From assembly GCA_951406725.2 (NCBI GenBank), contig OX597814.1, forward strand, positions 92,876,001-92,940,000: DNA of 64,000 nt, read 5' to 3'. The position numbers and the translations under genes are program-made. Shown here piece by piece: positions 2,323 through 62,498 of the stretch. Under the pieces are notes generated by a model. The model did not search any database, had not been told where the DNA came from, and worked only from the letters and a program-made list of their open reading frames with translations. The stretch is from Octopus vulgaris (Eukaryota). Every line of letters starts with the position of its first letter. The first letter of the stretch is position 1.

Positions 2323-5079
2323 GGTAAAGACCTGCTTCAGTCATGAATGACCATGGTATTGCACCTAGAAAGTTACCCTCTGAGGCACAAGTCTGGGCAA
2401 AGTTGTTTATGGAAGACCACCAGTCACCAATGCATACCAACCTCCCCTCTCCATGCTTTTAATGTTATCCAAGGGAAAGGCAAAGGCACCAAAAAACCTT
2501 TTCCATTCGTTTGTTCAGTTTGGTCACTTTTGACTTTTTCGTTGTTGTCACTCACATTGCTGCCCACTTTTTTGCCGTTTTTGTATATTTTTATACATTT
2601 TGGGATACTTACCCCACGTGTTCCGAGAGTTAAAAAGGTCGAGTTGTGTCCCCTAGACAGTCTGTAGAAAATGTGTTGCATATAAAAAGCTTAGATTCTC
2701 GACCCATGTTGAATTTATCGATTTTTTTTTCAGAACTGGGGGAACTTTTCGAAATTTTCGCTGCGTTAGTTTTGAATTATGACATTGGGCTATGTGTGTG
2801 TCAAGTTTCATCAGAATCGGTTGAAAGCCGTGGTCAGGGTGAGGGTACAACCTGACAGACACACAGACAGACAAACTGCTGTTTATATATAGAGAGATTA
2901 CTGTTATTTCTTTATTTTCTGCAAACAAAATGCACAAAAAAGCTACACGTTTGCATTATGTTATGTATACAATGATAATAAAGTACGTTACCGTATACAT
3001 TTTTACAAACTAAGGATGTTATATAGACCTCCTTGACTCAAGTTAGAGAAGGGATGTGTACCATACACAAGGTTTAGGTTTTTCAGAGGTACAGCCCCCT
3101 GAAAATCCCTTGCATATTATACTCAAGGGCGGACTATACTCGCGGATTTACGGTATATATATATTCTGTGGAGTGGTTGGTGCTAGGAAGGGCATTCAGT
3201 TATAAAATGTTGCCAAAACAGACTCAGAATCATGGTGCAGCTCCTGTCAAACCAGCCAACCCATACCAGCATGGAAGGAAGAGATTAAACGATGATGATG
3301 ATGATAGTCAATATGAAATACATGTCCACATATGCATAATTTTGTGTGTGTGTGTGTGTAAATTTAATGCACAAGATATGGATTTAATGACACATACACA
3401 CCTAAAAAGCTCATAAAAAAGCTCCTTTAATAAATTTGGTTACAAACCACATAGTAAACCTAGAAAAAGCAAGGGAATGTAATGTAGTGTCTGATACAGT
3501 CCAAATCCAATAAATCCAATTGGTAATGATTATTACATTTGAAGTATATAATATATAAAGAAAGACAGGAGGCTTAAAATAAATATATTTCACTAGTTGA
3601 CATCCATATCGCAACAATCATTTTGCAGCCTTTATCATAGAGAAACAATTTATTTTAGTGAATAATAAATAATAAAAAAAGCTTGCTTATCAGACAAAAG
3701 AATATTATGTTTGCTGTGATTCATTAGCACAATATATATATCCAAATGCAGAGAATAGAAATATAAGTAATGAGAATAATGGCAAAATATTTTAAATCAG
3801 ATAATATGAATGACTATAATTATAGGTAATCCAAATAATATTAAGAATGGAAGAAAAAATAATTTATATAAGATTATTTTGTGGTTTAACCCCACCTTTC
3901 AGTCTAAATGTTGCTTCCAGTGCAGCAAAAAAGTTATTCCAAGCTATAGATAAACATTTCCTTAACCCTTCCGTTACCAACCCGGCTGAAACCGGCTCTA
4001 GCTCTGAGTACAAATGTCTTGTTTGCATAAGTTTTGAATTAAAATCTGCCACCAAACCTTAGTCACTATTTATGTTCCTAACACTAGCTGAATGATACCT
4101 AAGTTATTTTACTAAATATTTTGTTATATTTAAAGTAATTGAAAGAAACACAGAACATCTCAAAATAAATACAGTAACGAAAGGGTTAAATCTAGCTCAT
4201 ATCATAAGATTTTCAATAAACACACAGTCAGCTGTCCCTACTGGTCTCTATTTTCTATCATGTGTAGCAAGTTCGCTATGTTGTGTTCTATCCACTCCTT
4301 GATATTGCCAAACCAGGATTTTCTCTGTCTGCCTCTCTTTCTCCCTCCCTCAGTTGTGTCCTGAAGAATAGCTTTGGATAGAAATTGTGGCAGGATACCT
4401 GACTGAATGAGGCAAGCTTTCATCTTTTTACATATGCAAGGAGTGGTCCCTGTCTGCCAGCACATTTGTTGACTTTGTGCCTGACAAATTTGTTCATTTT
4501 CTGCTCTATGTACAAAATGTGTAGCAGCCTTCTGAAACACGTGCTGAAATGTCTGGATTTTATGCTCCCTGTCAGCTGTAAGAGTCCAGCCCTCATACTC
4601 ATACAGAAGGATCAAAGCCATCAGGGTCCTGTACACTATGAGTTTTGCGGGAAAACTAATGGAATTGCTTTTTCGTGTGTTATTCAATAACACACACATA
4701 TACACATTCACAAATATATACACATGGTATAAACAATCTTATAAGAAACTAAATGTTATTACATTATCATCAATGTCCATCTTTTGGATTGCTTTTAAGA
4801 TGGAAGGAACTTCAATATTTTGTTGAAATATTTCATCATAGCAAACTCCTTTGATTTTCAATCCTGACCACAAGTTGTAAGATTTACAATGAAGTAGCCA
4901 AACAAGTCTTCTTTTATTTTGAGTAGATGACTCCCTGGAAAAAATACAAAAAACAAAAAACAAGAAAAAAAACCCAAATAAATAGATAATATAGAAATAA
5001 AAAATGAATTTTATGCAATTTTATTTCATTGAATTTTATGTCTATCACTGTTTGAGTTGCCAATTAGTGGTTTTATCTC

Positions 5080-9250: not shown

Positions 9251-10447
9251 CATCATCATCATCATTAAGGAATAACATAAATAATATATAAATATATGCT
9301 TACATACATACATGTACATACCTACATGTACATGTATGTATGCATATATTTATATATTATTTATATTATTCCTTAACGATGATGATGATGATGATGATAT
9401 ATATATATATAATATATATACGACAGGCTTCTTTCAGTTTCCATGTATCAAATCCACTCACAAGGTTTTGGTCAGCCCAAGGCAATAGTAGAAGACACTT
9501 GCCCAAGGTGCCACACCGTCGGACTGAACCCGGAACCATGTAGTTCGTAAACAAGCAACTTACCACACAGCCACTGAATACATTATATTATAATATCATT
9601 AGAACAGACAGTTTCATGGAAAGAAAGTATGGTGTCTTTTATCAATTATTTTTACTTGTTTTTGTCACTGGATTGTGGCCCTGCTGGAGCACCACCTTGA
9701 AAGGTTTTGTTGACCACATCGATACCAGTATTTATTTTTTGAAGGCTGTTACTCATTCTGTCTATTTATTTTGGTGAACTGCTACATTGCAGGGATGTAA
9801 ACACACTAACAATGATTGTGAAGCAGTGATAGACAAATACACACACATACACACACACACATACATACATATATTTTTGATGGATTTCTTTCAGGTTCCA
9901 TCTACCAAATCCAATCACAAGGTTTTGGCTGACCAAAGGCTATTGTAGAAGAACCTTGCCTAGGGTGTCACAGTGGGACTGAACCCAGGAACATGTGGTT
10001 GGGAAGCAAACATATTACTATACAGCCACATGTCCATTAAGAAAATAAGAGCTGGTTATCAAATAAATGTAGGTGTTTTAGAACATGAAAAGCAATTGTG
10101 TGGGGGGGGGAGGTCCACGCATTTGTGTGCATATGTGTGCATCATCATCTAATATCCCTTTCCATGTTGGTATCTGTTGGATTTTTCAACAAGATCTAAT
10201 GTGTTGGAGGGCCATGTGATGTTCCAATTTCTGTTTAAGCATGATTTCTATAGCTTGATTCTCTTCCTAATGTCAGTTTGCCACCAATTTTGCAGAGTGT
10301 ATTGAGTGCTTTTTTTCTATGGCACCATTACTTGTGTGGTTGCCTTGCAACTTGCAAGATTAAATGGCTTTAATAAGACTCCTATAATAGGAGAGAGGGC
10401 ATGATTATACTCAGTAAAGTTATGAGGAACAATGAAGTATGAGAGGA

Positions 10448-10485
<38 letters not shown>

Positions 10486-12031
10486 ATAAATCTCTAAGCG
10501 AGGTATAAACAGTAACTGCTCTGTAATATAAGCGGGACCAGCCATCTGAATGTGGCTAGGGACAGGGCGGGGTGGTGGAGGTGTTACTGATGCATTTAGC
10601 CCCAGGCGACTATAGACGTCACCAGGAGAGCCAACACCATCACGGTGTCCTTGCTAGCCTGCAGAGGGAGATCAGCCTCCCCGAAGATACGGATGCTACA
10701 CACGGACCGGTTTCGAGGTGGTCGCCTCTCGTCAGCGCATGGCAAGCACCGTTCTTCGTTGAGGGACTTCCTCTACAGGTTAGAAATATATAGATTTTCA
10801 CTGTAAACACAGTCACTGGCGTCGAAAATCTGTTCGATAACAATAATAAATCTCTAAGCGAGGTATAAACAGTAACTGCTCTGTAATATAAGCGGGACCA
10901 GCCATCTGAATGTGGCTAGGGACAGGGCGGGGTGGTGGGGGTGTTACTGATGCATTTAGCCCCAGGCGACTATAGACGTCACCAGGAGAGCCGATACCAT
11001 CACTGTGTCCTTGCTAGCCTGCAAAGGGAGATCAGCCTCCCCGAAGATACGGATGCTACACACGGACCGGTTTCGAGGTGGTCGCCTCTCGTCAGCGCAT
11101 GGCAAGCACCGTTCTTCGTTGAGGGACTTCCTCTACAGGCTAGAAATATATAGATTTTCACTGTAAACACAGTCACTGGCGTCGAAAATCTGTTCGATAA
11201 CAATAATAAATCTCTAAGCAAGGTATAAACAGTAACTGCTCTGTAATATAAGCGGGACCAGCCATCTGAATGTGGCTAGGGACAGGGCGGGGTGGTGGGG
11301 GTGTTACTGATGCATTTAGCCCCAGGCGACTATAGACGTTCCCAGGAGAGCCGACACCATCACGGTGTCCTTGCTAGCCTGCAGAGGGAGATCAGCCTCC
11401 CCGAAGATACGGATGCTACACACGGACCGGTTTCGAGGTGGTCGCCTCTCGTCAGCGCATGGCAAGCACCGACGAGAGGCGACCACCTCGAAACCGGTCC
11501 GTGTGTAGCATCCGTATCTTCGAGGAGGCTGATCTCCCTTTGCAGGCTAGCAAGGACACCGTGATGGTGTCGGCTCTCCTGGTGACGTCTATAGTCGCCT
11601 GGGGCTAAATGCATCAGTAACACCCCCACCACCCCGCCCTGTCCCTAGCCACATTCAGATGGCTGGTCCCGCTTATATTACAGAGCAGTTACTGTTTATA
11701 CCTCGCTTAGAGATTTATTATTGTTATCGAACAGATTTTCGACGCCAGTGACTGTGTTTACAGTGAAAATCTATATATTTCTAGCCTGTAGAGGAAGTCC
11801 CTCAACGAAGAACGGTGCTTGCCATGCGCTGACGAGAGGCGACCACCTCGAAACCAGTCCGTGTGTAGCATCCGTATCTTCGGGGAGGCTGATCTCCCTT
11901 TGCAGGCTAGCAAGGACACCGTGATGGTGTCGGCTCTCCTGGTGACGTCTATAGTCGCCTGGGGCTAAATGCATCAGTAACACCCCCACCACCCCGCCCT
12001 GTCCCTAGCCACATTCAGATGGCTGGTCCCG

Positions 12032-12080
<49 letters not shown>

Positions 12081-12297
12081 AATCTCTGAGCGAGGTATAA
12101 ACAGTAGCTGCATGACATCGTGAAGTATATTTGCCACTTAAATGTGGCTAACCCTTTAGGGTCGATGCTACTGTAGCTTGTAACCCCAGGAGGCACAGAA
12201 AGTGTGTCAATAGCCAGGTGGAGGAGGTGTCCTCCTGAGGCTACAAGCTACCGTAGCATCCACCCTTAAGTGTTAGCCACGTTTAAGCGGCAAATAT

Positions 12298-12349
<52 letters not shown>

Positions 12350-13118
12350 CATACATATATATACACACACGCTTTAGTAAGTTTGTAACCCAGAAAGAGT
12401 AACAAAATAGACACTATTCTGTGAGTGAGTGTGTGTGCATGTGCGTGCATATCTACATGTGTGCGTGTGTGTCTTTGTGCATGCTCATGCATCTAAAGTA
12501 CTTGTTTTGTTAAGTCAAAATGCAGCAGTTGTTACAGAAAGAGAGACTGGGGGTGAAGCAATAGAAAAATCAAGGCAACAAATATGTGGATATGGTAAGT
12601 AATGTTACAATCACCCAAATATAAATGTACTTTTATTTCTCTTTTGTACACTCAAACATTTATGTTCACATGCTTGAGAAGACACATCGAGCTGATTAAA
12701 ATTGAGGTCGTAGCTGGTGCCAGTGCCATGCGAAAGGTATCCATGCTAGTAACACGTAAAAAGCACCAGTGCCAATGACATATAAAAGACATCTGGCACA
12801 CTTATAAGGTGGTTGGCATTAAGAGGGGCATCCAGCTGTAGAAACCAAAACAGACTGGAACCTGGTTCATCTCCTCAGTTTACTAGCTCCAGTCAAACCA
12901 TCTAACCCAGCGTCTCTCAACCGGGGTTCCCTGGAACCCAAGGGTTCTGCAAAAAGTTCCTAGGGGTTCTGCGAGAAAGAGTGAGATAAGTTAATGCTAA
13001 TTTCTTGAATGTAATATTACTATACATGTACAACATATTATTGGTTATTGTAATTGTAATATTGTAATATAGACATCATCCTATCTAACCCATTATGATT
13101 ATCAAAAAAATATAACAA

Positions 13119-23599: not shown

Positions 23600-24645
23600 G
23601 TAGCGACCTGAGGTTGTCGATTCCTTCGTCTACCTTGGAAGCTCTGTTCAAAATGATGGAAATCTTGATACAGAAATACAGCTGTGAATTCATAGGGCAG
23701 CAAAAGCATTTGGTGGCTTGGAGTCACGAGTTTGGTGCCAGTAACATATAAATAAGAATACAAAGCTGGCTCTTTACAAATCATTTGTCTTACCAACCCT
23801 GTTGTATTGCTGTGAAACTTGGACTTGTTATGAAAGGCATTTTAAATTGTAAGAACAATTCCACCAAAAATGCCTTCATCGCATATTAAACATTAAATGG
23901 AGTTCTTTTACTCCAAACACAGATGTCCTTGCATCTGCAGGCAACACCTCAATTAAAGCTATGATTTTGAGGAACCAAATGAGATGGTGTGGCCATATTG
24001 TTCGAATGACAGATGAACGCATGCCGAAACAGCTGTTTTATGGTGAGCTTGCAAAGGGTAAAAGCTATTGGTGTAAACCTAAAAAAAAGTTTAAGGATGG
24101 CATAAGGACTACTATGAAGTCACTTGAAATGGTTCCAAAAGATATAGAAACTCTTGCTTCGGATCGAGTTGGATGGCAAACAAAAGTGTGGAGTGGAGTG
24201 AAAGCATTTGAAGAGGCCAAGATAATGCAAGTAAGACTCAAAAAAGATCTAAGGAAGAATTTAACGATCGAGAAGGTGAATGATAACGACCTTTTTGTGT
24301 GCACAGTCTGTGACAGACCAAGCCTGTCTTTTGCTGGCCTCAAATCTCATCTGCGAACGCATGAAAAATGAGCCCCCACCAACTATTCTGCCTATATGTC
24401 TGCAAACCTTTCAATGCAGTGTATGCCAGAAGGTTTGCAAACCCAACGGAGGCTCAAAAGATATTTTAAGATCCACAAAGATCAGAACTTATCTGCAACT
24501 CTTGGTGGTCCAAATCAGATGTGCAATCTATGTGGGTGTCTTTTCAGATCATTGTCTGGTTTAAAAAGCCACATCAGATGCCATGATAGTGCTAAGGTGT
24601 AGGTACAGGAGGTGGTCAAACTCTGCATAAGAGTAGACAACCACC
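23600..24645 (+). mobile_element. RTE-clade LINE 3' fragment ending in C2H2 zinc fingers
   Basis: LLYCCETW..., QMRWCGHIVRMTDERMPKQLFYGEL, CTVCDRPSLSFAGLKSHLRTH, CNLCGCLFRSLSGLKSHIRCH; flanked by (TATG)n. Confidence 0.85.
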
Positions 24646-25039: not shown

Positions 25040-25897
25040 AAAATCAAATCAAATCAAATCAAACCAAATCAAAATAGATGAACATCAATGGAATTTGTAT
25101 CTTTGTGGTACCAGTACCGGTGGCACGCAAGAAAACCATCCGAACGTGGCCGTAGCCAGTACCGCATCGACTGGCCTCTGTGATGTGGGCACATAACAAA
25201 CACCATCCGATCATGGCCGTCCGCCAGCCTCATCTGGCACCTGTGTCGGTGGCACATAAAAACACCAACCGAAGACCCGGCAGGACTAGTCAGGCCATAA
25301 CCCGTGGCCCCTACCTGGGACGTAGTCAGTCCACCTGTGCATACCTTCCTTCTTGTGACACTTGTGAAGACCTGTTGAGGCAAGTGAAAATCAAATCAAA
25401 TCAAAACAAATCAAAATAGATGAACATCAATGGAATTTGTATCTTTGTGGTACCAGTGCCGGTGGCACACAAGAAAATCATCCGAACGTGGCCGTAGCCA
25501 GTACCGCATAGACTGGCCTCCGTGCTTTGGGGACGTAACAAACACCATCCGATCGTGGCCGTCCGCCAGCCTCATCTGGCACCTGTGTCGGTGGCACATA
25601 AAAACACCATCCGAGCGTGGCCGTCTGCCAGCCTCGTCTGGCACCTGTGTCGGTGGCACATAAAAACACCATCCGAGCGTGGCCGTTCGCCAGCCTCGTC
25701 TGGCACCTGTGTCGGTGGCACATAAAATCACCCACTACACTCTCGGAGTGGTTGGCGTTAGGAAGGGCATCCAGCTGTAGAAACACTGCCAGATCTGACT
25801 GGCCTGGTGCAGCCTTCGGGCTCCCCAGACCCCAGTTGAACCGTCCAACCCATGCTAGCATGGAAAACGGACGCTAAATGATGATGATGATGATGAT
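25040..25897 (+). repeat. Tandemly amplified composite SINE-like repeat with (TGA)n tail, ~340-bp outer and ~60-bp inner repeats
   Basis: aatagatgaacatcaatggaatttgtatc at 25073 and 25415; ggcacctgtgtcggtggcacataaaa repeated; tail ggaagggcatccagctgtagaaac...catggaaaacggacgctaaatgatgatg. Confidence 0.8.
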
Positions 25898-29163: not shown

Positions 29164-30002
29164 ATTACAAGACATACCTGCAGCTGCATGTGGCTGAGAG
29201 ACTGTGGAAATATCAGCTGGTAAGGTATAAGGGACGGACGTACTGCCTGACCAGGTTGGGATTCAGGTTGAATTCAGCACCGATGATTATGGCGACAATT
29301 CTCAAGACCATCATGGGAAAGGCTGACAAAGTGAAAAGAGCCACCAATTCCTATATCGATAACATTCTGGTGGATGAGAGCATAGTGTCGGCAAAAGAGG
29401 TCATAAGCCACCTGAAGAGTTTTGGGCTAACCGGAGACAATGGAGGGAGGAGCTGCCCTGGGACTCAAGCTACGGAGAGACAAGGCTGGCGTGTTAGTGT
29501 TTCAGAGAGGGAATGAGATCCAAGAACTGGGTTTAAAGACGAGCAGGCAGGAACTGTTTTCTGTGTGTGGGAAGCTGCTGATGACACTACCCGATTGTAG
29601 GATGGCTCTGGACGGCATGCAGCTTCATCAAGAGGTGAGCTGGAGTGAGGTGGAGTGATAACGTGGGCGAGAAGACAACCGCCATAATGCAAGACGTCTT
29701 GGAGAGGGTGACTGCGGAGGACCCAGTAAGAGGAAACTGGTATGTGCCCAAATTGAAGAAGGGGATTGTGTGGTGTGATGCCAGCAGCATAGCGACGGGA
29801 GTTGTCCTGGAAATTGGAGGTGTCGTGGTGGAGGATGAGGCCTGGCTTAGGAAGAAGGACGACTGCAACCTCATCAACGTGGCGGAGCTCGATGCCGTAC
29901 TGAAAGGGCTGAACCTGACCCTGTGGTGGGGGCTGCGTACCATCGAGATTCGGACCGATTCAACTACTGTACATAGGCGGGCGGGATCAGTGATCACAGG
30001 CA
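29164..30002 (+). mobile_element. Second Gypsy-type pol fragment (RT and RNase H) in opposite orientation
   Basis: YLQLHVAERLWKYQ...YCLTRLGFRLNSAPMIM...SYIDNILV; WCDASSIATGVVLE...INVAELDAVLKGL...TDS. Confidence 0.8.
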
Positions 30003-30299
30003 ACCTTCAGTCTTTTATTACTATCTATTTGAATATACTACAAATGAAGTGACTTCTATTGAAAACTGGTATTTCTAGTTTTTGCAACACTTTTGAATAG
30101 GTTATTGTATGCTAACAATTGGTTTTATGATTATAGCTTTTTTACAAACATACATGAATACATTTTTGTGTGGTGGACTATTCGTAAAGCTATTAAATCT
30201 CTTAACAACAACAAATCATTTAATTTCAAGATATTCCAAACAGTTTTTCAGCTTTATCATTTACATTGTTTGACAATGTTAATAAACTAATGTATTACA

Positions 30300-30933: not shown

Positions 30934-31640
30934 TTACAGCACTTCACGATAGACAACGTTCGTTGTTCTTCCAGATGGAGCCAAAGCGAATAGGTTGTTC
31001 TGACTACCGACTCGGGAACATCCAACGTATAATTGTCCATGTAAGAAACATGGCTCCTGCAAATGAAGCCCTGCCACAGATAATGTCTGACCCTGTGATT
31101 TGTTTATGGACATGGCAAATGCAACACGTAGGGGAAACTCTGTCCTGAAACAGTAGGGTGCATCAGCTCCTGATGTCGTAAGTATAATCTTAGTTATTAA
31201 AACGCCCTCTCCCTTTCCACAACCGGAAAGAATTTTAGCATAAATGTTATCTGTTATTTTAGTTATTACAAGCTTTGTTCCGTTACAAAGCTTAGGTGGA
31301 GTGATATTTCTCAGAAGAATAACGGGACATCTTTCTTTGAGGGACAGTTGATGTTGAGGTAGCCCGGGAACATCAAGATCATTCAGATATTCAATTGTAA
31401 ATTTGGTGTCATCACGCCGGTCTACATTTGAATTAACTGACGTAAATGTTCTGATATTTCCAGGAAGGCTTTCAAGTAGCTGTTCATTTATACTGGAAAT
31501 AATAGCATTTGTAGGAGCTAATACAGCCCTTTCACATAGCCAATTGTGATTTCGGCAATTCTGTTGAATGTTTGGAAAAACGGATGCCTTTAGATCCTCT
31601 ACATTTTCAACCACCTCTTCGATGAAAACAAGCGAAATAT
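30934..31640 (-). mobile_element. Helitron RepHel PIF1-helicase C-terminal fragment
   Basis: WLCERAVLAPTN, GLPQHQLSLK, PVILLRNITPPKLCNGT, FPLRVAFAMSINKSQGQTL, HGQLYVGCSRV, TTNVVYREVL*. Confidence 0.92.
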
Positions 31641-32892
31641 ACACTGCCAGAAGTTCTTGTTGACAAACAACAGCAGTAATTTTATTCAGCTGAATACACG
31701 TCATTGATTGGTTGAAATTACTGAAATAGGCCAACTTTAACGTGAAATAACTTCGTAAATATAAGCTTTTCTCAAAAACGCTAAGAGTAAAAGATGTTTT
31801 ATATGACACATTCTACCAGTGTCCGAAATTTTAAAGTGTTTAGTTTAAAAAAATCATTTTTTAAATCTGTCGGTCAAAAGGTAAAGATCCAACAGATGTA
31901 AAACAACATGTAGTAAACGAAAATGGAAAAAAAAAATGCACGCTGATGAACGGGGAGAGGACTCGGAAAATTCACGCGATCAGTCTCACAGGATCCGAAA
32001 ACTCAACATTAACACCCGGTCACAAAAATGAAAAAAAAAAAAAATAGTGTAATAGGTGTAAAATAATGTGTAGTAAAAAAGAATTGCGCTGACGAACAGG
32101 GAAATGGCGAGAGGACTCGAACTTTCCCGATGTGAATTTTCCGAATTGTTCCCCCCCCCCCACTCACGTTCGCCAGTGCACATTTTTTTTTTCATATCTG
32201 TTTACTACGTGTTATTTTACACCTATAGCACTTTTTTTTTTTCCTTTTTGCTCAGGTCAACATGGATACGAAGAAAAACTGCACCGCATCCGTCCAGAAC
32301 CGCCGAAATGGCAAGAGTGGAGATGCAAGCCTTCAACACTGCGATTAATGGAGTGCCAAAACTTTTCTTTTGTAGGAGGCAAGAACATTCAAGAAAACCA
32401 TATCATGAGTTTACTCATGGTGTCTGACCGAGTGCCTAGCAGTTAAGCTTCTAATCACAACTATGCTGTCAATGACATATCAATATCATACAGTGTTGGA
32501 CAGTAAGCTGGCAGAATCGTTAGCACATCAGTCAAAATATTTAGTAACATTTCATCTTCATCCATCTGTATGTTCTTAGTTCAAATTCAGCTGAGATCGA
32601 ATTTGCCTTTCATCCTTTCAGAGATCAATAAAATAAGACCCAGTTGAACATTGGATTAGATGCCCTCCCCCAAAATCTGAAATGTATTATACAGAATCTG
32701 TATCTGTGTTAATTTTCATGTCATATACCAATAATAAAGCTTTCATGAACTTTTAATTCTGAGATTTTTATATTAATACAGTTAATTCGTTGTTAACAAC
32801 TAACAGTATGTGCAATACACGTTGTTTTATGAGATTTCAATGGCGCATTTATTCATTGAATAATTTGGAAGTATTTGGTTTGTGTAATATAT

Positions 32893-34118: not shown

Positions 34119-35266
34119 CATCATCATCATCATTTAACGTCCGCTTTCCATGCTAGCATGGGTTGGACGGTTCAACTGGGGTCTGGGGAGCCCGAAAGCT
34201 GCACCAGTCCAGTCAGATCTGGCAGTGTTTCTACAGCTGGATGCCCTTCCTAACGCCAACCACTCCGAGAGTGTAGTGGGTGATTTTATGTGCCACCGAC
34301 ACAGGTGCCAGACGAGGCTGGCAGACGGCCACGCTCGGATGGTGTTTTTATGTGCCACCGACACAGGTGCCAGATGAGGCTGGCAAACGGCCATGATCGG
34401 ATGGTGTTTGTTACGTGCCCACAGCACGGAGGCCAGTCGATGCGGTACTGGCTACGGCCACGTTCGGATGGTTTTCTTGTGTGCCACCGGCACTGGTACC
34501 ACAAAGATACAAATTCCATTAATGTTCATCTATTTTGATTTGTTTTGATTTGATTTTATTTGATGTTGATTTTCACTTGCCTCAACAGGTCTTCACAAGT
34601 GTCACAAGAAGGAAGGTATGCACAGGTGGACTGACTACGTCCCAGGTAGGGGCCACAGGTTATGGCCTGACTAGTCTTGCCGGGTCTTCGGATGGTGTTT
34701 TTATGTGCCACCGACACAGGTGCCAGATGAGGCTGGCGAACGGCCACGATCGGATGGTGTTTGTTACGTGCCCACAGCACGGAGGCCAGTCGGTGCGGTA
34801 CTGGCTACGGCCACGTTCGGATGGTTTTCTTGTGTGCCACCGGCACTGGTACCACAAAGATACAAATTCCATTAATGTTCATCTATTTTGATTTGTTTTG
34901 ATTTGATTTTGATTTTCACTTGCCTCAACAGGCCTTCACAAGTATCACAAGGAGGAAGGTATGCACAGGTGGACTGACTACGTCCCAGGTAGGGGCCATG
35001 GGATATGGCCTGACTAGTCTTGCCGGGTCTTCGGATGGTGTTTTTATGTGCCACCGACACAGGTGCTAGATGAGGCTGGCGAACGGCCACGATCGGATGG
35101 TGTTTGTTATGTGCCCACAGCACGATGGCCAGTCGATGCGGTACTGACTACGGCCACGTTCGGATGGATTTCTTGTGTGCCACAGGCACTGGTACCACAA
35201 AGATACAAATTCCATTGATGTTCATCTATTTCGATTTGATTTGATTTTCACTTGCCTCAACAGGTC
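34119..35266 (-). repeat. Second tandemly amplified copy of the composite SINE-like repeat (~330-345-bp units, about 3 copies)
   Basis: tttcacttgcctcaacagg at 34571, 34915 and 35246; reverse complement of the 25040-25897 family. Confidence 0.85.
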
Positions 35267-55906: not shown

Positions 55907-58900
55907 CAGTTAGAGGGTAAAATAGCCCCATTAAAGGATAAAAATATATCCAATGAATTACTGGTTCATTGCCTAGTATGTTTTTGTGAATAGTGATATT
56001 CATAAAAAAATAAGTATAAATCTTGGTTTATTCAAAATAAAATTCAGAAAATGGAGTTGTAGCATTAATACAATTCATCAACTGCAAAAATCCAACATAC
56101 TCTCTTACAGTTCAGATTATATTAATGCTACATCTCCATTTCCTGAATTTTATTTTGTATATATATATATATATATATATATATACCATCATTTAACATC
56201 TATATTCCATGCTGGCATGGGTTGGATGGTTTGACAGGAACTGGCAAGCCAGAGGACTGCACTGAGCTCCACTGTCTGTTATGGTATGGTTATTTTTTTG
56301 ACAGGTGAATGGCCTTCCTAATGCCAACCACACACACATACAGGCATTTTTTCAGTTTCCATCGACCAAATCCACTCACAAAACCTTGTTTGGTCTTGCG
56401 CCATAGAAAACACTGGTGCAAGGTGCTGTGCAGTATGATAGAACCTAAGAAGAATGGGACAAAAAAAAAAAAAAAAAGAAAAAAAAGAAAAGAAAAAGAA
56501 AAAAAACCATCACTAACAGCTGATTGAATTGGGGTTGTTTGGAGTCTATTGTCATCTGTATCTGAGTCCAAAGCATCATCAATCAAGTCGTCCACACTTG
56601 TGGTTCCCATAGATTCCATCTCATCACTATCGTAATCTTCATCCAAAGTGTCGTCAGTGCTGTCTATATTATCATGGGGCTGGTATTTGCGATTTTTGTT
56701 TTTTTCCAAATGCTGTTGGCGTTTGCCCAGTTCAATAATATTAGTGGAGCTTTCTGTTTGCAGAGAAAGCTTATATTGTTGACGCACAGATTCTGGCACG
56801 AAGGCACTGATGCTGACATCATCACTCTCATCATTGTCGGGATGGGACATGCTGTTGTGAGCAGCTGCAGCACGGCACAGGGCTTCGTTCTCTTCACTGC
56901 TGGAATAATAATCGTCCTCAAAATCTTGCTCCATGTACTGTAAGTCTTGACGAGATTCGAGGGTTCTTTCTGCATCAGTCTCATCACTGATATCATCAAT
57001 GCTGGATTCTTGATAACTGTAAATAAAGAAAAATAAGCAAATTAAATAAGCAAATAGGTGAAATACCTATTTCTTTACTACCCACAAGGGGCTAAACACA
57101 GAGGAGACAGACAAGGACAGACAGACGGATTAAGTCAATTATATCGACCCTAGTGCGTAACTGGTACTTAATTTATCGACCCCGAAAGGATGAAAGGCAA
57201 AGTCGACCTCGGTGGAATTTGAACTCAGAACATAACGACAGACGTAATACCGCTAAGCATTTCGCCCAGCGTGCTAACGTTTCTGCCAGCTCACCGCCTT
57301 TAGTGAAATACCACTAAGCATTTCATCTGGCATGCTAATGATTCTGCCAGCTCATCGCCTTCTAAAGTAATAAAAATAATAGTAATTCTACAATAGGCAT
57401 AAGGCCTAATAATTTTTGTTTCAAATTTTGGTACAAGGTCAGCAATTTTAAGGGAAAGGAGTTAGTCTATTACATTAATCCCAGTGCTCAACTGGTACTC
57501 TGTCTCTCATCCTTTCAGTGGTTGATAAAATAAATTGACTATGGTAGGACTTGCATTCAGAACAAAGAGCTGGAAGAAATGTTGCAAAGCATTTTCCAAA
57601 ATGCTAACAATTCTGCCAGATCATCACTTTAAGAACAATGATATCTGATTTAGGTACAAGGCCAACAATTTTGAGGGAGGGATGCTTTTTGATACCATCA
57701 GCCCCAGTACATGACTGGTACATTATTTTACTGACCCTGGAGGGATGTTTTGTGCATGTCACTGTGGTCCCACACTATCAAGTTTGATTTGATTACTTCA
57801 CCACAAACCTTCATTGATTCGAAATGTCTTCTATGAGTATGGTTCAACAATAATTCAGAACAGTCTTTCAACCAGAACTGTTAGCATAGTGGACAAAATG
57901 CTTAGCGGCATTTTATCCATCTTTATGTTTTGTGTTCAAATTCCACCATGGTCAACTTTGTCTTTCATCCTTTCAGGAGCAATAAAATAAGTATCAATTG
58001 ACCACTGGTATAGATTTAATCGATTTACCTATTAGATTAAAATTGTTGGCTATGACAAAATTTGAAACCAATATTAAGGAAGTGCAAGATAAAAAAAAAC
58101 AAATTTGTAAAACAGAACACTTACTTTCCATATCCATAATAGTCATCTGAACTTTCAAAGCTGTCCTCAAAATGAACTTGCTTAACTACACTCTTCAAAG
58201 GAGTATCCCCTGGATTTACTAGAGCAGACTTCTTTTCGGGGACTGCAGAATTCTGAGGGGCTGCAACCAGTTTGAATATACTACTGCTCTCCCCAGCAGT
58301 AGTCACCTTGGAGCTAGTTGCAGAGGTGGTTGTTTTGCTTTGTCCTGGTAGTGGTGGTGGTGGTGGCGGTGGTATTCCACTTGTTGCTACCATCTGTCCA
58401 GTCTTGTTTTCATTAGGTACAGTTGCTAGAGGAAGAAAATAATACAAATTGTAACATCAACAAGAGCTGATATTCCAAGGAACAGTAACACACTTCTTTT
58501 TTTAACCATATTACAATGAATGGTTTTGTTTTGTTTTTACAAATGAATCTAAAGGGATGGAACAGTGACTATGATCTTTGCAATTCCCCTAAAACTTGTA
58601 GATCTGAAGATGAGTAATCTGGGAAAGTAAAGACTGGTTTAAATGTGGTAACTGAATGGTGAGTTACAGTAAGGGTATTGAAAAGAAGACATAGCCAGTT
58701 GCATACCATCTGTATTGTGATGGTAAGCAGCTGGCTATCTCAAAAGCAATAAACTGTAAAATTAACAGCTAGATAGATAATGTGTACCATAGCCAAGAGA
58801 TACATATATTTAAGGTTATTTCCAAAATTTCTATTGATAGCTATAATCCACATTCATTCCACCACCATTCCCAGTTTATAGAACAGGTATCAAAAACACG

Positions 58901-60683: not shown

Positions 60684-62302
60684 TTCCAATGGAGCCATGG
60701 TGCCAATTCTTTGCAGGGGAGGTACAAAATCACTTAAATTGTAACTCTCAACAAGCCAAAGAGGAATCCTCTATGTTGTTGCTCAACTTACTAGAAGTAG
60801 CAGTCAAATCTCCCTCAAACTATACTTTATTGCCTTAAAAAAAACATTGCCAATGCAGTCCATTGCATAAAAGTAAATATATAAAAACATTCACAGCTGG
60901 AATGCTTTTGATGAAGGCAAACTTAGGATAAACATCAATTCTAATTATAATATACAATATTAATTGATGAAAAAGTAAGAAGACACTCACCACAGTGTTA
61001 TCTTTTAAGATACCATTATGCCATCGATTTTCAAGTACTTTCAGCTCAGCCATTCGTTCCTGTCGAATTTTTTCAGCCATTGAATGAGTGGTGGTACTCT
61101 GTTGAGTTTCAAACAAGCGCTGTTGAATAGCTTTCATGGCACAGCTGGCTTTTGAAGGGCTCAGAGGCTTAGATTTAGATTCAATAGAATTGGATCTGAC
61201 AACAGGAGATTCGAATTTCCTTGACATTCCAGGAGATTTGGGAATATTTGCAGACACTGGTCTCGAAGGTGTTGTAGTAGGACAAGGTAATGTAGTACCT
61301 TTAGGCTTAATCATTTTGTTGGATTCAGTACTCCCACTGGCAGTCACCTGTTCCCATGCAGACATGCGAGCATTTACTGGATAAGCAGTTGGTTCTTTCT
61401 CAGTCACCGCTTCAAGAGTGTTGACTTTCTTTTGCCATTCAGCCATTCTTTTAGAAACCGACTGGCTTGTTGGTTCAAAACTCTCACGGCGCTTGTTACC
61501 CTCTTTATTTCTCATATTTACAGGTTCAGCTGCAGGAGTATTATGTGTTGCTGATGATGGTACACTAGACGATACGCTGTTAATCTGCACTGAAGAAGAA
61601 CCTGATGACTGGGAAGACTGTTGATTGCTAAATGCAGATCTGTTTTGTTTTGGTGTAGATGAAATCCCTAGGCTCTTCTCAAGTTGAGCAACTTTTGATG
61701 ACAAGTTCTGGCTGCATCTATTGCCCATAGGGGTAATGGTTTTAGAATTTGGCTGAGTATTTTCACTTTTAGAAGGACTTGCTGGACTTACACAGTTAGT
61801 TTCTGTTGCAGATACTTTCTTTGACCATTTGGCCAATCGCTCAGAGACTGGTTTGTTAGTTGGTTCATCATCTGTGGTTTCTCCTTGAGTAAAGGAATCA
61901 TTAAGCCCCCGAGCATTAACAGGTATTTCACTTGGAATATCCTGCAAATGGTCTTGACCACTACCTTTGGCAGTATAAGGGTTCTTTTTGTTGTTTCTTA
62001 ATGGCTTCTGCTGCCTTGACATTGTCTCAATAGCTGATTCTAAGTCATCACCTGGAATAAAACGTGGAGCAACAGGTGCTGGAGATCTTGGAGTATATGA
62101 AGGACCAGGAGACTTTGAACGCACTGGCAGAGGTGTTGCAGGTGCAGATGCCATGGGTGCAGCAGATTTGGAGCGAGGAGACCTCATATGAGGGGCCACT
62201 GGAGCAGCAGTCCTTGACCGAGAATTTCTAGTTTCCAGTTGCCCCTCAGTAGTCATTGGTATGTCACGTTCCCTGTCAACTAAATGAACTGAGTTGGGTC
62301 GA
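38048..62302 (-). CDS. ANLN: Anillin (actin/myosin/septin/Rho scaffold of the contractile ring), spliced gene, 5' end not identified in window
   Basis: Fifteen GT-AG exons with consistent phases. They contain diagnostic anillin segments: [26 protein letters not shown]...[20 protein letters not shown] (RBD), [13 protein letters not shown] (C2/AH), [26 protein letters not shown]...[16 protein letters not shown] and [17 protein letters not shown] (PH). Stop TAG at 38048-38050. Confidence 0.95.
38330..38502 (-). CDS. ANLN: Anillin PH exon ([11 protein letters not shown]...CARPNTFEM...)
   Basis: ctccag acceptor, gtatgt donor; within ORF 38248..38520. Confidence 0.95.
39244..39431. mobile_element. 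hAT MITE with 8-bp TSD
   Basis: cagtggttctcaac / gttgggaaccactg; TSD ctctttag/ctctatag. Confidence 0.8.
39685..40100 (+). mobile_element. RTE-like LINE fragment
   Basis: [13 protein letters not shown]...[34 protein letters not shown]. Confidence 0.75.
40544..40651 (-). CDS. ANLN: Anillin PH exon ([36 protein letters not shown])
   Basis: tttccag acceptor, gtaatt donor; highly conserved anillin PH motif. Confidence 0.96.
42483..42569 (-). CDS. ANLN: Anillin exon ([17 protein letters not shown]...SGFL)
   Basis: ttcatcag acceptor, gtaagt donor, phase 0 to 0. Confidence 0.92.
43551..43663 (-). CDS. ANLN: Anillin exon ([18 protein letters not shown]...FTMDR)
   Basis: ctttcag acceptor, gttagc donor, phase 1 to 0. 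Confidence 0.88.
45483..45552 (-). CDS. ANLN: Anillin polybasic exon ([23 protein letters not shown])
   Basis: attacag acceptor, gtaagt donor; polybasic loop of the anillin C2 region. Confidence 0.88.
46598..46770 (-). CDS. ANLN: Anillin C2/AH exon ([17 protein letters not shown]...[10 protein letters not shown])
   Basis: tcttcag acceptor, gttagg donor, phase 1 to 0. Confidence 0.92.
48375..48613 (-). pseudogene. Partial duplicate of the anillin 46598-46770 exon 3' end plus its downstream intron
   Basis: Aligns with about 46407-46633; shares atttcatagagctccaaagtaacttgaaattttga exactly; donor changed from gttagg to tttagg. Confidence 0.85.
49731..49886 (-). CDS. ANLN: Anillin exon ([15 protein letters not shown]...[16 protein letters not shown])
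   Basis: atttcag acceptor, gtaggc donor, phase 1 to 1. Confidence 0.92.
50442..50580 (-). CDS. ANLN: Anillin RBD exon ([24 protein letters not shown]...HKLLLIA)
   Basis: tattttag acceptor, gtatgt donor; anillin Rho-binding helical motif. Confidence 0.92.
51457..51583 (-). CDS. ANLN: Anillin exon ([13 protein letters not shown]...SILERIK)
   Basis: ttaacag acceptor (alternative in-frame AG 6 nt downstream), gttagt donor. Confidence 0.85.
53207..54100 (-). mobile_element. Tc1/mariner transposase remnant interrupted by a SINE-like insert
   Basis: [19 protein letters not shown] motif near 53760-53825; [24 protein letters not shown]. Confidence 0.75.
54634..54764 (-). CDS. ANLN: Anillin exon (NKRGSHLL...[13 protein letters not shown])
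   Basis: ttactag acceptor, gtaatg donor, phase 0 to 2. Confidence 0.9.
56518..57016 (-). CDS. ANLN: Anillin acidic exon
   Basis: tttacag acceptor, gttagt donor, phase 2 to 0; overlaps ORF 56290..56934. Confidence 0.85.
58125..58425 (-). CDS. ANLN: Anillin exon with polyproline tract
   Basis: cctctag acceptor, gtaagt donor, phase 1 to 2; within ORF 58121..58447. Confidence 0.85.
58933..58969 (-). CDS. ANLN: Anillin 37-nt micro-exon ([12 protein letters not shown])
   Basis: ttgcag acceptor, gtgagt donor; supplies the phase 0 to 1 change required between neighbouring exons. Confidence 0.8.
59405..60228 (+). mobile_element. Mariner remnant with long inverted ends
   Basis: [20 protein letters not shown] at about 59975-60035; 59405-59600 is inversely similar to 60050-60228. 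Confidence 0.75.
60991..62302 (-). CDS. ANLN: Anillin large exon, low-complexity Ser/Pro/Thr-rich N-terminal region
   Basis: 1312-nt exon inside ORF 60835..62358; poly-T tract plus ttag acceptor, GTG|gtgagt donor. Confidence 0.9.
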
Positions 62303-62498
62303 CTAAATAAGCAAAAAAAAAAAGAAAAAAAAAAGAAAAGAATCATTATGTCTGACACTTAAGACTTATATTTTTTCAAATATTTTTAACATATGTTGTT
62401 TTGTAGCATTATTTTAATATTTTTAACATATGTAATTCTGTTTGCATGGTTTGAATATATCTGCAAATTCAGACACTTACATAAATTTTTAAAGAACT

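Follow-up and report, generated by a model that had tools for sequence, protein, structure and literature searches.

Is the 360-nt unit repeated in this part of the Octopus vulgaris genome a viroid-like RNA circle, or a mobile element of the genome? The initial annotation of the window (the whole stretch of 64,000 nucleotides analysed here) had described its minus-strand monomer as a branched structure that closes across the ligation junction. Our analysis partly confirms that observation and partly supports its interpretation: the fold is real, but the element belongs to a known kind and is a new non-LTR retrozyme family member. It is a young retrotransposon passenger in a genome, bearing Penelope-type insertion marks, and not a viroid. 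We infer that the unit is the monomer of a non-LTR retrozyme with a five-branch body closed by helix I, released by a double hammerhead and inserted by a Penelope-like element (PLE), a reading to which we give a probability of roughly 0.75.

The repeat at positions 10482-12038 consists of two back-to-back arms flanked by (TA)n target tracts, 10449..10482 on the long-end side and 12035..12077 on the short-end side. The long-end arm (10482..11471, minus strand) runs through monomer positions 314-360, two whole units and then 1-223, and the inverted short-end arm (11471..12038, plus strand) through about 332-360, one whole unit (11500-11859) and then 1-179. Tandem Repeats Finder (TRF) reports a period of 360 with 2.8 copies, and the annotated coordinates match exactly the minus-strand monomer that two predicted cut sites delimit, 11064-10705 (10705..11064, with position 1 at 11064 and cut sites after GUC at 11065 and 10705). 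A "tail" segment of about 45 nt (10842..10885, minus strand; monomer 180-223) lies between the two insertion end points, as placed by end counts, and holds the 3' strand of branch P4 together with the hairpin P5 (203-213). The unit has a G+C content of about 52% and is non-coding, as no frame of at least 120 aa overlaps the array; a scan for bacterial promoters, which is irrelevant to this element, gave nothing above shuffles. The 360-bp units occur as arrays on many contigs, and 1694 candidates came from a search of the genome's 227 contigs (2.8 Gb); 40 of them were scored, with 168 matches.

Other repeats and frames lie elsewhere in the window. A 343-bp tandem repeat of 2.6 copies (34335-35247) is built on a 62-bp sub-repeat also found at 25540-25732, and neither matched Rfam at E 2. 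The open frames at 30934-31812 (minus strand), 29465-30052, 23853-24371 and 4238-4738 look like pieces of a Helitron helicase of the PIF1 type, of the RNase H of an LTR element and of LINE ends. Long low-complexity open frames at 60835-62358 (plus strand) and 56290-57066 (minus strand) resemble host exons.

Every part of a type I hammerhead is present at 10705..10735 on the minus strand: the CUGAnGA core, here CUGACGA (330-336), helix II GAGG/CCUC (337-350), GAAA, helix III, an NUH site with the cut after C360, and an open helix I. Read directly from the sequence, helix II has four pairs and helix III is the palindrome ACCGGU (354-359). We aligned 59 distinct whole monomers, taken from the loci collected to that point, and helix II is retained in 58-59 of the 59. 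The core pair 3-8 is C3-G8 in 29/59, U3-A8 in 27/59 and otherwise in 3/59, and so is kept or compensated in 56/59; the same swap has been reported for PLE hammerheads (PMC4209133). As judged from these aligned copies, the core covariation suggests that catalysis is kept. The ribozyme was found on one polarity only. Rfam at the gathering score gave no hammerhead in the whole window, and at E 5 over 10400-12400 it again gave none, with only sub-cut-off miRNA-type hairpin matches at the inverted junctions. Because helix III is minimal, the missing Rfam match is not disqualifying for the hammerhead class.

Folded as a circle, the monomer has a minimum free energy (MFE) of -115.6 kcal/mol, whereas 60 shuffles that preserve dinucleotides average -94.8 +/- 4.9 (z -4.25, 0/60 as good), and the opposite strand reaches z -2.02 (2/60 as good). 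The neighbouring unit (11424-11065) behaves alike, at z -4.13 versus -1.83 on its opposite strand. The asymmetry is larger in the 141-nt junction (z -7.04 on the ribozyme strand versus -3.57 on the complement) and is repeated in a second subfamily (-7.11 versus -3.80) and in a sister family (-8.50 versus -5.41). The inner 230 nt alone are no more stable than shuffles (z -1.53, 17/200). In these models the folding excess resides in a stem of about 43 pairs linking both monomer ends, whose 5' strand lies at 11014..11064 (minus strand; monomer 1-51, including the 3' side of helix I at 1-6), as placed by pair probabilities and pair-keeping variants, and whose 3' strand lies at 10736..10783 (minus strand; monomer 282-329, including the 5' side of helix I at 324-329). 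On the predicted structure, this closing stem is the extended helix I of the type I hammerhead. It is predicted in uncut linear tandem RNA too, across the junction, and therefore offers no proof of a circle. The end-to-end pairing described in the initial annotation is thus recovered by prediction, while the remark that a viroid-like circle would need such pairing overreaches.

Pairings quoted for the stem and the branches varied in how well they fit the window copy. CCGUaUCUUCG (monomer 13-23) does pair with CGAAGAACGG (307-316) at a probability of 0.97-1.0. The segment UGCAGGCUAG (42-51) likewise pairs with 282-291 (mean probability 0.89 over 38-51), but with other letters than those given, its partner in the window copy being CUAACCUGUA and the quoted CUAGCCUGUA belonging to flanking units. 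Inside the stem, the putative family structure has branch P2 at 10993..11009 (minus strand; monomer 56-72), which is degenerate in the window copy and rests on RNAalifold and a cross-family change from C-G to A-U. Branch P3 (10958..10992, minus strand; monomer 73-107) contains the inner hairpin GGUGAC/GUCGCC, which forms in the window copy at a probability of 0.88; the pair 87:95 at its end is broken in 24/59 copies. Branch P4 (10870..10949, minus strand; monomer 116-122 with 189-195) changes from A-U to G-C in the sister family and encloses the hairpin UAGCCA/UGGCUG (147-166); the hairpin annotated as CUAGCCA/UGGCUGG forms here at 0.99. Branch P6 (10792..10831, minus strand; monomer 234-273) carries AGAUUUUC/GAAAAUCU, and its inner hairpin 247-264 is degenerate in the window subfamily. 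The AGAUUUUC/GAAAAUCU pairing has a probability of 0.01 in the window copy, forms in two of three other copies (0.96-0.98) and reaches 0.42 in the third. GACACC/GGUGUC had been quoted from neighbouring units and does not hold for the window copy, which reads GACACA/GGUAUC; across the family, each of its pairs is kept in 57-59 of 59 monomers.

Two of the earlier statements fail. The hairpin GGGAG/CUCCC (monomer 24-39, window 11026-11041) has a probability of 0.00 in 6/6 monomers tested, because the long stem uses both of its strands. The sister family has a counterpart, GGGAAG/CUUCCC, which makes a transient co-transcriptional hairpin possible. Nor are G-U pairs unusually many: they make up 15 of 112 pairs (13.4%), against 11.7 +/- 2.6% in shuffles, with 18 of 60 shuffles as high. 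We rejected G-U enrichment as evidence of selection, its share being no above-chance value.

Substitutions among copies speak more directly to the fold, and compensatory changes are found among the 59 monomers; with the circular fold also better than shuffles, neither result that would have refuted the initial annotation was obtained. All 11 closing-stem variants present in at least four copies keep their pairs (8 one-sided, 3 two-sided), where by chance a single change keeps its pair with a probability of 0.43; the rarer variants include 22 broken types. The one-sided changes are all swaps between Watson-Crick and G-U pairs, which on the opposite strand would be A-C mismatches. The closing helix is paired in 98.9% of cells. 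Variants at positions 4 and 327 preserve helix I in its catalytic register and disrupt pairs in the register of the window copy's MFE structure. The RNAalifold consensus structure is paired in 97.5% of cells, has 9 of 99 pairs altered on both sides and scores above 500/500 shuffles for covariation, a score to be read with the caveat that the structure was derived from the same sequences that tested it. The copies also form about three related subfamilies, which leaves few independent compensatory events, and at each of 87:95, 248:263 and 253:258 there are 23-30 copies that fail to pair. The MFE branches of the window copy itself were rejected as the family structure, lacking covariation support and keeping only 3 of 16 recurrent variants. 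Selection at the RNA level on the minus strand, which the initial annotation had read from the G-U pairs, is thus supported by substitution patterns and strand asymmetry and not by the G-U count.

A sister family, here family 2, provides a second set of sequences for the same body. One of its insertions, short and two-armed, lies next to the array at 12075..12300 (minus strand), with inverted arms and a tail and no ribozyme in this copy; the genome holds 2513 candidates for this hairpin element and 3340 for the whole family 2 unit. Family 2 has its own hammerhead, with a longer helix III palindrome and a helix II that often begins with a C-A mismatch, for which reason its ribozyme may be weaker. 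In a sequence-only alignment it is 58% identical to the window family, and the tail is the best-conserved stretch between the two, at 87-95% identity over 186-228. Nine contiguous family 2 units fold independently to the same plan of a closing stem and P2-P6, with 953 of 1021 cells paired. When the two families are aligned by sequence only, 12 of 18 doubly changed pairs still pair (closing stem 5/10, inner 6/6, core 1/2), against 2/8, 2/15, 5/14 and 6/14 in controls with slid partners. Single changes in the stem and branches break pairs in 22 of 33 cases, partly through one-letter register offsets, and RNAalifold on the sequence-only two-family alignment of the junction recovers only 23 pairs, 6 of them two-sided, with register errors. 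Taken together, the branched body is moderately supported at the family level.

The minimal helix III gives the stem a possible role before cleavage. Most metazoan type I hammerheads have a palindromic helix III of 1-2 pairs and cut as dimers (PMC4209133; PMC7229834), and axolotl HHR_Amex1 resembles the octopus unit in a short palindromic helix III that needs dimers (PMC7229834). For the window array, a double hammerhead is predicted at -186.5 kcal/mol versus -166.9 for two single ones; it is favoured by 12-20 kcal/mol in 4/4 arrays and is the MFE structure in one of the four (L099). In the predicted double hammerhead the two ends of the middle unit pair with each other, the same pairing that the initial annotation had noticed. 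In the window subfamily an inactive, mis-registered core is predicted to be preferred, the active form lying 6.8-11.6 kcal/mol higher in the circle and 7.3 in the precursor. We propose that two neighbouring hammerheads in a tandem transcript would join through the ACCGGU palindrome; the unit between the cut sites, already paired end to end before cutting, would be released as a pre-closed monomer. Its 5'-OH and cyclic-phosphate ends would be held together for a host RtcB-type ligase to close the circle, in which the single remaining hammerhead would cut poorly. Ligation of the RtcB type has been shown in vitro for axolotl and mussel retrozymes (PMC7229834).

How the element enters DNA can be read from its ends. 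In a survey of 50 loci, picked as best matches, 28 are two-armed, and 26 of these 28 end once at 175-185 and once at 218-230; in the other two, one side ends at 212 and 232. Family 2 insertions end at about 176 and at 218-223. Among 5 loci checked whose targets are not pure (TA)n, 4 show target duplications of about 11-13 nt, and the targets, where flanks were inspected, are microsatellite or AT-rich DNA. At one locus (L042:3987-4308) a degraded retrozyme piece alternates with stretches of TA, perhaps because a long microsatellite was misread or misassembled. An inverted arm with a one-sided tail is a mark of PLEs (PMC8557442), in which the tail lies between two reverse transcriptase (RT) start sites in vitro (PMC11167929). 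A Penelope-like RT-endonuclease would likely bind the conserved P4/P5 region and nick (TA)n DNA; the RT would then begin at fixed positions inside the unit, from one DNA end at about 181 and from the other at about 223-228, and run through the ribozyme sites to write the back-to-back tandem arms. A cleaved linear template was rejected, as 0 of 12 arms checked start at the cut site (10 extend upstream of it and 2 start 4-5 nt downstream), and the template was therefore a circle or an uncut multimer.

Four loci (L028, L042, L050 and L105) join the retrozyme to a candidate partner. In each, a retrozyme short-end arm is fused head to head with a 5'-truncated PLE long-end arm over the four shared letters CTGC; the PLE arm (L042:1743-3191, minus strand) carries a frame with a truncated RT, CxxxxCxxC and GIY-YIG (Pfam matches below cut-off), and appears Neptune- or Nematis-like by a motif described in PMC8557442. 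Shared flanks suggest one event copied to four places, and an independent insertion is possible. The PLE family, very young and with whole copies at L164-L171, has 88 scored copies at 98-100% identity, several with open frames of 1310-1312 codons. Its copies stop at either of two 3' ends separated by 57 nt, and six two-armed loci show both, one on each arm, which gives a 57-nt tail; by eye, its pseudo-LTR carries a variant hammerhead-like motif. A second PLE family with 781-codon frames (L179, L184 and others in L173-L202) has a U3-A8 hammerhead-like motif downstream of the frame and is not similar to the retrozyme. BLAST of the retrozyme against 38 loci of the 1312-aa family gave no similarity other than the chimeric event and a separate family 2 insertion, and none against 30 GIY-YIG loci out of 6136 candidates in all, and none of the loci fetched holds a PLE whose pseudo-LTR resembles the unit. 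We conclude that the retrozyme is likely inserted by a Penelope-type retrotransposon enzyme.

Avsunviroidae viroids and hammerhead satellite RNAs have a branched circle of similar size, and their multimers are cut by double hammerheads. Genomic copies could be by-products of a viroid-like RNA replicating from RNA to RNA, and size, hammerhead and compact predicted circle would all fit, as would the cloned mussel circles that matched no database entries (PMC7229834). We consider this very improbable: unlike Avsunviroidae, the octopus element is genome-encoded and has its ribozyme on one polarity only, its integrated DNA copies carry marks of retrotransposition, and 1694 genomic candidates with PLE-type ends and target duplications explain the spread without RNA replication. 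The least probable reading treats the self-complementarity as left over from an old fold-back (inverted) insertion of DNA, without any role as RNA. Every two-armed insertion does create inverted junctions, and the complement of the junction also beats shuffles (z -3.6), but this reading is at odds with the strand asymmetry, with the G-U-tolerant and two-sided changes and with a topology shared by a family that is 58% identical, and the covariation largely refutes it. A more serious alternative, though one we hold to be unlikely, dispenses with the circle: the stem would build a (double) hammerhead or an RT-binding RNA, and the templates of the arrays would be linear multimers that were never cut, as for PLE pseudo-LTRs. 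In linear tandem RNA the stem is predicted across the junction; hammerhead mutants have no effect on PLE insertion in vitro, where unprocessed RNA is the main substrate (PMC11167929), and only one of nine predicted Xenopus retrozymes cut in vitro (bioRxiv 10.64898/2026.07.22.740005). Against it, circles accumulate in coral, mussel and axolotl from retrozymes built in the same way (PMC7229834), and the covarying core points to retained catalysis. Variants within arrays pull both ways. Twelve locus-private variants occur in all units of their locus, six of them in both arms, and would favour one template; 15 variants are common to only some units of an array and, absent later conversion, would be a misfit with a single monomer circle. 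Divergence within a locus (1.2-1.3%) is no lower than that to the nearest other locus (1.1%), and so leaves circular and linear templates undistinguished. Runs guessed to be RNA gave short family contigs only, which cannot show expression, ends, strand, circles or editing.

A different alternative concerns the G-U pairs of the stem, many of which could derive from A-to-I editing of double-stranded RNA, fixed by reverse transcription, and not from selection. Over 49 loci, rare A-to-G changes number 9 on 12 closing-stem adenosines versus 5 on 47 inner ones (binomial p 4e-4) and also exceed T-to-C changes in the stem (4 on 22, p 0.017), and selection is unable to lift a rate above that of unpaired sites. 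The events are, however, not independent, falling on 6 distinct stem sites, and the count omits 57 common polymorphic sites that could not be polarised; family 2 shows no excess (stem A-to-G 5 on 22, T-to-C 7 on 26), and two-sided changes such as A-U to G-C and C3-G8 to U3-A8 demand more than editing. We hold editing to be a tentative explanation, somewhat better placed than a history without circles and still short of an even chance.

The class placement follows the features found. Metazoan non-LTR retrozymes are non-coding tandem units of 150-450 bp with a type I hammerhead, those of mussel measuring 350-390 bp (Cervera and de la Pena, 2020; PMC7229834), and the octopus element combines type I hammerhead units within 150-450 bp, non-coding and dispersed, with duplications longer than 4 bp and a stable predicted circle. 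The retrozymes of PMC7229834 are likewise highly self-paired as predicted circles and have target duplications above 4 bp; their circles were seen by northern blot, whereas the octopus circle is a prediction from DNA. The G+C content lies above the <45-50% given there for metazoan retrozymes, and the octopus fold, unlike theirs, was tested across two families. The main text of that paper makes no mention of octopus, cephalopods, inverted arms or covariation. From non-autonomous PLEs come the inverted 5' arm, the tail at one end only and the microsatellite or AT-rich targets. Pseudo-LTR insertions of PLEs share the inverted 5' arm, a 30-40-bp one-end tail and (TA)n or AT-rich targets, and PLEs also have two internal RT start sites and a hammerhead in the repeat (Craig et al., 2021, PMC8557442; Frangieh et al., 2024, PMC11167929). 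The octopus retrozyme differs in having no ORF, a tail of about 45 nt and no sequence likeness to the pseudo-LTRs of the PLE copies fetched. The same partnership, with retrozymes as non-autonomous PLE derivatives, has been proposed from co-occurrence and pseudo-LTR homology in vertebrates (Li, Clavereau, Pollet, 2026, bioRxiv 10.64898/2026.07.22.740005); in octopus it rests on the footprint that insertions leave and on a single chimera, with no pseudo-LTR homology among the copies fetched. Dimer regulation of viroid and satellite hammerheads, as cited in PMC4209133, offers a parallel for the double hammerhead. Our literature search, in which most matches were judged from their listings, found no report of the octopus family, of retrozyme editing or of chimeric arms.

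Structures of animal retrozymes have mostly been single-sequence predictions, and the mobilising enzyme has been a proposal. The fold described here now has comparative support from two families, and the end-to-end stem is given a concrete role, in which a double hammerhead would release a pre-closed monomer. With a candidate enzyme, an RNA template and two predicted RT starts named, retrozyme jumping becomes testable in the published in vitro PLE assay. A further picture, speculative and in our judgement rather improbable as a whole, is that a host-ligated RNA circle with the two-family fold parasitises an expanding Neptune-like Penelope enzyme that senses the P4/P5 structure instead of a common sequence, and that A-to-I edits of the long closing stem enter the genome through reverse transcription. 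If that were true, a host editing enzyme would steer the evolution of the element toward G-U pairs.
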